The notes under the pieces were generated by a model. That model ran no database searches, was not told the DNA's origin, and saw nothing but the letters and a program-made list of their open reading frames with translations. A DNA stretch of 31,035 nt from Escherichia coli (GTDB lineage: Bacteria > Pseudomonadota > Gammaproteobacteria > Enterobacterales > Enterobacteriaceae), in the NCBI RefSeq assembly GCF_003334255.1, contig NZ_QOWU01000060.1, one strand, 5' to 3'. A program made the position numbers and the translations under genes. This document shows positions 6,380 to 7,502 of the stretch, piece by piece (the first letter of the stretch is position 1; every line of letters starts with the position of its first letter).

Positions 6380-6805
6380 ATGAAACGGAACACGAAAATT
6401 GCCCTGGTAATGATGGCGCTTTCAGCAATGGCGATGGGATCGACATCTGCATTTGCTCACGGCGGACACGGTATGTGGCAGCAAAATGCCGCGCCTTTGA
6501 CCAGCGAACAACAGACAGCGTGGCAGAAAATCCATAATGACTTTTACGCTCAAAGCAGCGCACTGCAACAGCAACTGGTGACGAAGCGTTATGAATACAA
6601 TGCCCTGTTAGCCGCGAACCCACCGGATAGCAGCAAAATTAACGCGGTCGCCAAAGAGATGGAGAATTTGCGTCAGTCGTTAGATGAGTTACGGGTGAAA
6701 CGAGATATCGCGATGGCTGAAGCGGGTATTCCGCGCGGAGCCGGAATGGGCATGGGCTACGGCGGCTGCGGTGGTGGCGGTCATATGGGTATGGGCCACT
6801 GGTAA
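6380..6805 (+). CDS. zraP: periplasmic zinc-binding stress protein (CpxP/Spy family)
   Basis: 141-aa product MKRNTKIALVMMALSAMAMGSTSAFAHGGHGMW... with a signal peptide and a Gly/Met/His-rich C-terminus (GMGMGYGGCGGGGHMGMGHW); RBS GGAGG at 6368-6372. The ORF-track start at 6239 is an in-frame upstream extension across the UAS and promoter. Confidence 0.93.
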   Translation: MKRNTKIALVMMALSAMAMGSTSAFAHGGHGMWQQNAAPLTSEQQTAWQKIHNDFYAQSSALQQQLVTKRYEYNALLAANPPDSSKINAVAKEMENLRQSLDELRVKRDIAMAEAGIPRGAGMGMGYGGCGGGGHMGMGHW

Positions 6806-6806
6806 A

Positions 6807-7502
6807 TCAGAACGTTTTCTCGTTGGGTTGCCAGCGACAGAAATCAGAGTTTGCCACTAACAGTAATTGCGAACCTTCGGGCGCTTCCAGCCATGCCACG
6901 CTGACATCAACAGAAGAGCGGCTCTGGCGGCGCTCGATATGCGCTATCGCCTGCGAATCTAAATCAGGTTTAATGGTTTGCCCTTCGCAGGTGGTCACGG
7001 TCTGTTCCATCGCATGCCAGCGCCCCTGGCGCAGCACGACTCTCCCCTGACGTAAGGCATCGCTAATCTGGCGGATCTGATCAGCACGATAACGGTATAA
7101 ATCGATTTGGTCGTTAGAAAGCTGCTGCTTTTCCCCATCGGATTCACGTTGCATAAAGCTCAGATCACCGCGATCGTCAAAACGCGCGCGAATATTCACC
7201 GGCGGTTTGCTGTAAACATTGATATTGATGAGCGTGAGGTTATCGCCCTGCCAGCGATACTCTCGCGTCGTGGTATCGCCACTGCGCCACGGGCTAAACA
7301 CGGCAAGCAGATGCACATTATCGCCGCTGTCTTTTCGCCAGATGCGTACCGCGCCCTGGTCTTCAGCAAATCCACTGGCGGTAAAGGGAGGAAGTGAAGA
7401 GTTATGACTACAGGCAGTGAGAAGCAGAGCGCCAGCCAGCATCAATGATCGACGCCAGAAAGACAAAAGGGGTGAAACCACCCCTTCGTTAAAACTGTTC
7501 AC
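6807..7502 (-). CDS. yjaH: conserved protein of unknown function, probable lipoprotein
   Basis: ORF in frame with the 233-codon track entry; lipobox LLLTAC|S after a hydrophobic stretch. Start uncertain: GTG at 7508 (233 aa), GTG at 7502 (231 aa, the length I recall) or ATG at 7442 (211 aa). Its stop is 1 bp from the convergent zraP stop. Confidence 0.8.
   Translation of the reverse strand: MNSFNEGVVSPLLSFWRRSLMLAGALLLTACSHNSSLPPFTASGFAEDQGAVRIWRKDSGDNVHLLAVFSPWRSGDTTTREYRWQGDNLTLININVYSKPPVNIRARFDDRGDLSFMQRESDGEKQQLSNDQIDLYRYRADQIRQISDALRQGRVVLRQGRWHAMEQTVTTCEGQTIKPDLDSQAIAHIERRQSRSSVDVSVAWLEAPEGSQLLLVANSDFCRWQPNEKTF
7455..7489 (-). terminator. rho-independent terminator downstream of hupA
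   Basis: Minus-strand RNA AAGGGGUG-guuu-CACCCCUU followed by UUGUCUUUCU, about 26 nt after the hupA stop; lies inside the annotated 5' end of yjaH. Confidence 0.65.

Follow-up and report, generated by a model that had tools for sequence, protein, structure and literature searches.

The junction between the convergent genes zraP and yjaH of Escherichia coli very probably owes its insulation to Rho and not to hairpin terminators, and it has already been catalogued. It lies in a stretch of 31,035 nucleotides from contig NZ_QOWU01000060.1 (assembly GCF_003334255.1), here called the window, whose positions are used throughout unless MG1655 is named. Published data for MG1655 show that yjaH-sense transcription passes the yjaH stop codon, continues antisense to zraP and ends there in a Rho-dependent manner. 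For transcripts travelling from zraP into yjaH, the best inference that the sequence affords is diffuse termination of the Rho/NusG type, or collision, within the region antisense to yjaH.

Positions 6800–6809, read directly, are TGG TAA A TCA, and the features around them are collected in Table 1. That the two stop codons stand 1 bp apart in convergent orientation, as a previous sequence-only reading of the window had claimed, is borne out by the sequence, the translations, the RefSeq annotation and the identity with MG1655. RefSeq/PGAP annotates identical zraP and yjaH coordinates in all of the records inspected (300709, S43, AGR6128, MSB1_8B and MG1655), the MG1655 counterparts being b4001 (yjaH; 4200566–4201261) and b4002 (zraP; 4201263–4201688). 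Over 6.7 kb around the junction (MG1655 4199800–4206500) the window matches MG1655 exactly (100% identity), so that experiments carried out in that strain can be transferred base for base; the zra locus is found at an identity of at least 95% in 5421 of 5426 complete E. coli genomes. The C-termini of both proteins (…EKTF in YjaH and …GMGHW in ZraP) are conserved across genera, which rules out an annotation error at either stop codon. YjaH also carries a lipobox, L-T-A-C, at residues 28–31, of which A30 and C31 are invariant in the YjaH alignment. The window contains three convergent pairs, with gaps of −4, +1 and +409 nt. Published work or standard annotation covers the arrangement, the transcript overlap and the Rho site, so that the junction is an ordinary tail-to-tail arrangement that was already known. 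Among strains of E. coli, zraP varies by a 6-nt indel (420 versus 426 nt, giving ZraP proteins of 139 versus 141 residues; WP_001296714.1 versus WP_000828222.1), which leaves the 1-nt junction unaffected and is presumed to lie in the Gly-rich tail (window ∼6740–6800).

Table 1. Features of the zraP/yjaH junction and of the adjoining zra locus (window coordinates)
Feature	Position	Strand	Description and basis
zraR stop/purD stop	3423–3426		overlap within CTAA; zraR stop TAG, − strand, 3425–3423; purD stop TAA, + strand, 3424–3426
Inverted repeat GAGTAAAAATGACTCGC...GCGAGTCATTTTTACTC, ZraR-binding site	6241–6286		between zraP and zraS; hairpin scan
zraP σ54 promoter TGGCACGGAAGATGCA	6329–6344	+	pattern match
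zraP coding sequence	6380–6805	+	141 aa; periplasmic ZraP, ends …GMGHW; stop TAA 6803–6805; translation and RefSeq
C-rich, G-poor RNA, proposed Rho-loading (rut) region	6650–6806	−	just past the yjaH stop; assigned on composition
Top Rho score, BCM-sensitive termination of yjaH-sense RNA	6666	−	141 nt past the yjaH stop; approximate, 800-nt windows
Spacer between the convergent stops	6806		single base, A6806; sequence read
yjaH coding sequence as annotated	6807–7502	−	231 aa; DUF1481/PF07356, ends …NEKTF; stop TGA 6809–6807
hupA intrinsic terminator, stem GGGGTGgtttCACCCC and T tract	7456–7487 (stem 7487–7466)	−	consensus scan; within the annotated 5′ end of yjaH

The involvement of Rho is documented by DirectRNA-seq performed with and without bicyclomycin (BCM) (Adams et al., eLife 2021; PMC7815308). 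Supplementary file 2 of that study lists a Rho region at MG1655 4201402 on the plus strand and classes it as 'antisense zraP'. The reads upstream and downstream of this position numbered 444 and 40 without BCM and 294 and 456 with BCM, corresponding to a Rho score of 17.2 (p = 9e-85). Among the first 96 regions listed in the table, three score higher than this and 54 are antisense to a neighbouring gene, making it a common class. The sequence-only reading had looked in one direction, from zraP into yjaH, and so missed this documented passage of yjaH-sense transcription into zraP and its arrest by Rho.

The composition of the yjaH-sense RNA past the stop codon agrees with these data. The first 78 nt from position 6806 downward contain C at a fraction of 0.44 and G at 0.22, 78-nt windows starting at 6806–6726 contain 0.36–0.45 C and 0.15–0.23 G, and the C/G ratio is at least 1.9 over some 120 nt. 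The segment thereby fits the description of RNA at a Rho-dependent terminator, namely an untranslated, C-rich, G-poor and weakly structured stretch of about 80 nt. An evolutionary sample of 80 species-level Enterobacteriaceae loci was assembled via YjaH; zraP adjoins yjaH in 44 of them, and the rut-like composition is found in all 44 (mean C 0.405, mean G 0.212). This RNA runs antisense to the codons of the ZraP tail, G-A-G-M-G-M-G-Y-G-G-C-G-G-G-G-H-M-G-M-G-H-W, and it is rich in C and poor in G because the GGN, ATG and CAY codons of the tail are here read backwards. The Gly/Met/His tail is retained also in genomes with a longer yjaH–zraP spacer, which indicates that it is a feature of the protein and that the rut-like antisense is most simply a by-product.

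These observations lead us to propose that, once ribosomes leave at the yjaH stop codon, a naked, C-rich, G-poor and weakly structured RNA antisense to the ZraP tail would be exposed, upon which Rho could load and terminate the yjaH-sense transcript, with the signal peaking ∼141 nt past the stop. The class of Rho termination antisense to genes was reportedly first described on a genome-wide scale by Peters et al. in 2012. The yjaH-sense strand fits well as a Rho-dependent terminator antisense to a convergent neighbour of the type compiled by Adams and coworkers (PMC7815308), sharing with that class the sensitivity to BCM, the location past a stop codon and the C-rich, G-poor composition, and differing from it in nothing essential. 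Within the class the yjaH–zraP site is one of the stronger ones (17.2), and its C-rich tract derives from the Gly/Met/His codons of the opposite strand.

Searches for terminators at the junction gave no support for a hairpin mechanism. A scan for consensus intrinsic terminators over 6100–7900 on both strands returned a single match, the hupA terminator on the minus strand, and a more permissive hairpin scan gave no convincing candidate for several hundred bases on either side of the junction. No G+C-rich hairpin flanked by an A tract and a T tract across the gene ends was found near 6806 on either strand, and neither terminator scan revealed a hairpin followed by a U tract at the yjaH-sense 3′ end. 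On the zraP-sense strand, the RNA past the stop codon of zraP shows no more structure than shuffled sequences do (z = −0.23); the yjaH-sense 3′ region is weakly structured by the same comparison (z = −1.71), with −49 kcal/mol as the minimum free energy of 201 nt versus −70 kcal/mol for a comparable zraP-sense stretch. An Rfam scan of 5800–8200 at a permissive threshold detected no known RNA at the junction. Its sole match, to the plant microRNA precursor MIR169_7 (E = 0.81), falls on the ZraR palindrome and is a spurious, chance hit. The earlier claim that zraP and yjaH lack a terminator where they meet thus stands; for a spacer of a single base it is trivial, but according to the scans and the folding it extends to the adjoining coding sequence.

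A conserved zraP 3′-UTR element hidden within yjaH was considered as well. Codon-level analysis of 80 genomes uncovered no excess synonymous conservation in the 3′ half of yjaH, where diversity is flat at ∼0.9–1.2 bits and is alike in genomes with a tight junction, with a loose junction and without the zra genes. Such an element was rejected on this basis.

The lack of canonical terminators between two convergent genes would also be compatible with polymerases from zraP and from hupA–yjaH halting each other at the junction, a collision-driven mechanism that has been described for hundreds of convergent pairs in E. coli (bioRxiv 10.1101/2022.10.23.513370). Bidirectional terminators of this kind (Ju et al., 2019; Wang et al., bioRxiv 10.1101/2022.10.23.513370) resemble the present case in uniting a convergent pair with mutually overlapping transcripts. 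However, those defined by SEnd-seq encode a pausing hairpin within the overlap and act independently of Rho, whereas there is no such hairpin at zraP/yjaH and the mapped yjaH-sense end is strongly BCM-sensitive. Moreover, zraP is almost silent in LB, so that few opposing polymerases would be met, yet termination of the yjaH-sense transcript is efficient there (444 reads versus 40). Mutual collision as the principal mechanism is therefore very improbable, and termination by Rho is preferred for the yjaH-sense strand.

For the opposite direction, a near-perfect inverted repeat of 17 bp lying between zraP and zraS is taken, from what is established about ZraR, to be the enhancer site of zraP. The published ZraR ChIP-exo peak_9 (MG1655 4201786–4201818) corresponds, by arithmetic on the colinear coordinates, to window 6250–6282 and thus falls within the repeat. 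The 16 bases of the σ54 promoter are identical to those given as the σ54 site of Salmonella zraP (PMC3844500). In the MSB1_8B RefSeq record a 42-residue 'hypothetical protein' is annotated over the zraP enhancer and promoter (window 6249–6377, plus strand; 350–478 in locus L004), an assignment that is probably spurious.

Transcripts initiated at this promoter would enter yjaH in the antisense direction. The Term-seq 3′-end table of PMC7815308 holds no entry for zraP and the Rho table of the same study no region antisense to yjaH; zraP is hardly expressed in LB, which presumably explains both absences. The zraP-sense RNA over 6806–7300 shows a weak bias of C over G (C/G 0.9–1.5) and is thus not an obvious Rho substrate. 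The nearest strong hairpin that zraP read-through would meet is the hupA terminator in reverse, ∼660 nt further on and followed by a poor T tract. A search of the literature for zraP together with Rho-dependent termination or a terminator returned nothing specific. The 3′ ends of zraP RNA are probably diffuse over a few hundred bases, since no hairpin terminator precedes the reversed hupA hairpin, and they might be generated by Rho/NusG or by collision with polymerases arriving from hupA–yjaH.

The zraP RNA might instead be ended by a hairpin, whether a weak structure in the 3′ coding sequence of yjaH or the reversed hupA hairpin (7470–7485 on the plus strand, then TTCGTTAAAACTGTT). Many E. 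coli terminators are bidirectional (bioRxiv 10.1101/2022.10.23.513370), the reversed hupA hairpin has a folding energy of −10.3 kcal/mol and the permissive scan gave weak hairpin-and-T sites at ∼6969, 7143 and 7331. Nevertheless, few T residues follow the candidate hairpins, the standard scan accepts none of the sites and the 3′ half of yjaH lacks excess synonymous conservation. In addition, Rho/NusG would normally catch an untranslated RNA of 660 nt first. We regard a hairpin end as unlikely; were it to occur at the reversed hupA hairpin, a zraP RNA of ∼1.1 kb antisense to the whole of yjaH would result. Diffuse ends of the Rho/NusG or collision type remain the preferred reading for zraP.

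An overlap of the two transcripts is supported by an independent compilation. ExcludonFinder (Sanmartin et al., NAR 2025; PMC12288877) includes both yjaH–zraP and zraR–purD among 165 convergent overlaps of MG1655, a pair being listed when at least 50% of the 58 RNA-seq sets for that strain show the overlap. With a spacer of 1 nt between yjaH and zraP, any 3′ UTR counts as overlap. The pair shares with the published convergent excludons (PMC12288877) the tail-to-tail placement on opposite strands, the short gap and the overlapping transcription units; it is unlike them in that mutually exclusive expression is unseen for yjaH in RNA-seq of zinc treatment and zraR knockout, a comparison that concerns changes of more than 2.8-fold. 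As to RNase III processing of the paired RNAs, published p19 capture of double-stranded RNA yielded too few 3′-UTR signals for convergent pairs.

Membership in this core list, together with a read-through that meets no terminator, raises the question of whether zinc-induced zraP represses yjaH, by collision or because RNase III cleaves the 3′ ends where they pair, to the point of mutually exclusive expression. Strand-specific counts from Choudhary et al. (mSystems 2020; PMC7657598), in which genes were called at |log2FC| > 1.5 and FDR < 0.05, bear upon this. In 1 mM ZnCl2, zraP differs by a log2FC of −12.7 between the zraR knockout and the wild type, and yjaH is not among the 97 genes called. 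Likewise, in BaeR-knockout contrasts zraP changed by +6.1 in ethanol and by −4.3 in LB, with yjaH not called in either case (PMC7657598). The one contrast in favour is that of the zraR knockout with the wild type in LB, in which zraP fell by a log2FC of −5.6 and yjaH rose by +1.72; however, 1095 genes were called there (PMC7657598), and the contrast looks like a general culture shift rather than a specific effect. In a 2007 array study, moreover, zraP and yjaH were both down together. The zinc comparison is sensitive only to changes in yjaH mRNA greater than 2.8-fold, and translation is outside its reach. A mercury RNA-seq paper gives an induction of zraP of up to 42-fold, and there is essentially no literature on yjaH.

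Because yjaH is not called despite a difference of 12.7 log2 units in zraP, a strong effect on yjaH mRNA is unsupported, and the consequence for yjaH that the sequence-only reading had implied for zraP read-through is not seen. The overlap probably does little, if anything, to regulate the level of yjaH mRNA, and we consider repression of yjaH by zraP in the manner of an excludon improbable. A subtler variant would have the Gly/Met/His codons of ZraP doing double duty as a Rho-loading site, with a long zinc-induced zraP antisense RNA over yjaH tuning synthesis of the YjaH lipoprotein in a way that mRNA counts would not show, through translation or single-cell exclusivity. Although we give this variant little credence, it would mean that zraPSR is wired to both of its neighbours through Rho instead of being insulated from them. 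Insulation by Rho is retained here as the preferred explanation.

The hupA terminator encountered above occupies codons 6–14 of the annotated yjaH frame. A strong Term-seq 3′ end at MG1655 4200605 (PMC7815308) corresponds to window 7463, 39 nt into the yjaH ORF. Between genera the stem varies in a compensatory manner (GGGGTG/CACCCC, GGGGCG/CGCCCC and GGGGCT/AGCCCC), and the first 20 codons of yjaH display a synonymous diversity of roughly one-quarter to one-third of that in the rest of the gene. Production of YjaH is thus apparently restricted to transcripts that read through the hupA terminator.

At the other end of the zra locus the stop codons of zraR and purD overlap, by 4 nt, as the sequence-only reading had noted in a companion claim, and its statement that both borders of the locus adjoin convergent neighbours (yjaH at one and purD at the other) is likewise correct. 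Here too a Rho region has been listed, at MG1655 4204911 on the plus strand, antisense to purD and with a score of 4.3 (PMC7815308); in window coordinates it lies at 3157, 266 nt beyond the stop codon of zraR. Rho termination of transcripts running in the plus direction of MG1655 is thus documented at both borders. The Escherichia cassette has essentially no spacer at either border, which would leave Rho as the insulator at both.

Comparison across the 80 loci places the junction in an evolutionary setting. The gap between the yjaH and zraP stops is 1 nt in all five Escherichia species-level genomes (including E. coli, E. albertii and E. whittamii) and in one Trabulsiella; it is 2–3 nt in other Trabulsiella and in Klebsiella, Kluyvera and Phytobacter, giving gaps of at most 3 nt in 21 of the 44 zraP-bearing Enterobacteriaceae genomes. 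Gaps of 11–12 nt are seen in Kosakonia, Pluralibacter, K. grimontii and some Citrobacter, and gaps of 18–88 nt, with a REP sequence of the GCCGGATG type in the spacer, in other Citrobacter and in Salmonella. The tight spacing is thus conserved and not accidental. The remaining 36 loci (among L016–L085), which include Enterobacter, Leclercia, Lelliottia, Raoultella and Citrobacter koseri, lack zraPSR, and in every one of them purD converges directly on yjaH across a spacer of 45–190 nt with REP-like hairpins (CCCTCTCCC...GGGAGAGGG). As purD and yjaH meet directly in these loci, zraPSR is a 3.4-kb cassette that some genomes carry between these convergent housekeeping genes and others lack. Retention of a tight junction in several genera would suit repression of yjaH by zraP, but the absence of the cassette from 36 of 80 relatives and the long spacers of Salmonella and Citrobacter argue against it.

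The zra junction is of little import beyond its own locus. It does offer a clean example of a cassette inserted without spacers between convergent genes and insulated, on the reading preferred here, by Rho and not by hairpins, and it illustrates how the low-complexity tail of a protein can incidentally supply C-rich RNA for Rho on the opposite strand. Replacing or recoding zraP would be expected to remove the terminator of the hupA–yjaH transcript, a caveat of practical relevance since the zraP promoter is a popular part in zinc and lead biosensors.

Two of the sampled loci deserve separate mention. In Escherichia sp. MOD1-EC7003 (L006) purD starts ∼2.2 kb past the yjaH stop, a distance too short to accommodate zraP, zraS and zraR intact, which would imply an internal deletion of zraSR in this lineage. 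The locus on CACSKA010000020.1 (L016), labelled 'Chryseobacterium sp. 18061', has a yjaH–purD arrangement of the Enterobacteriaceae type, with a yjaH sharing 80% identity with its E. coli counterpart; at the junction the locus is almost the same as in Citrobacter sp. 18056, and contamination or mislabelling is suspected.
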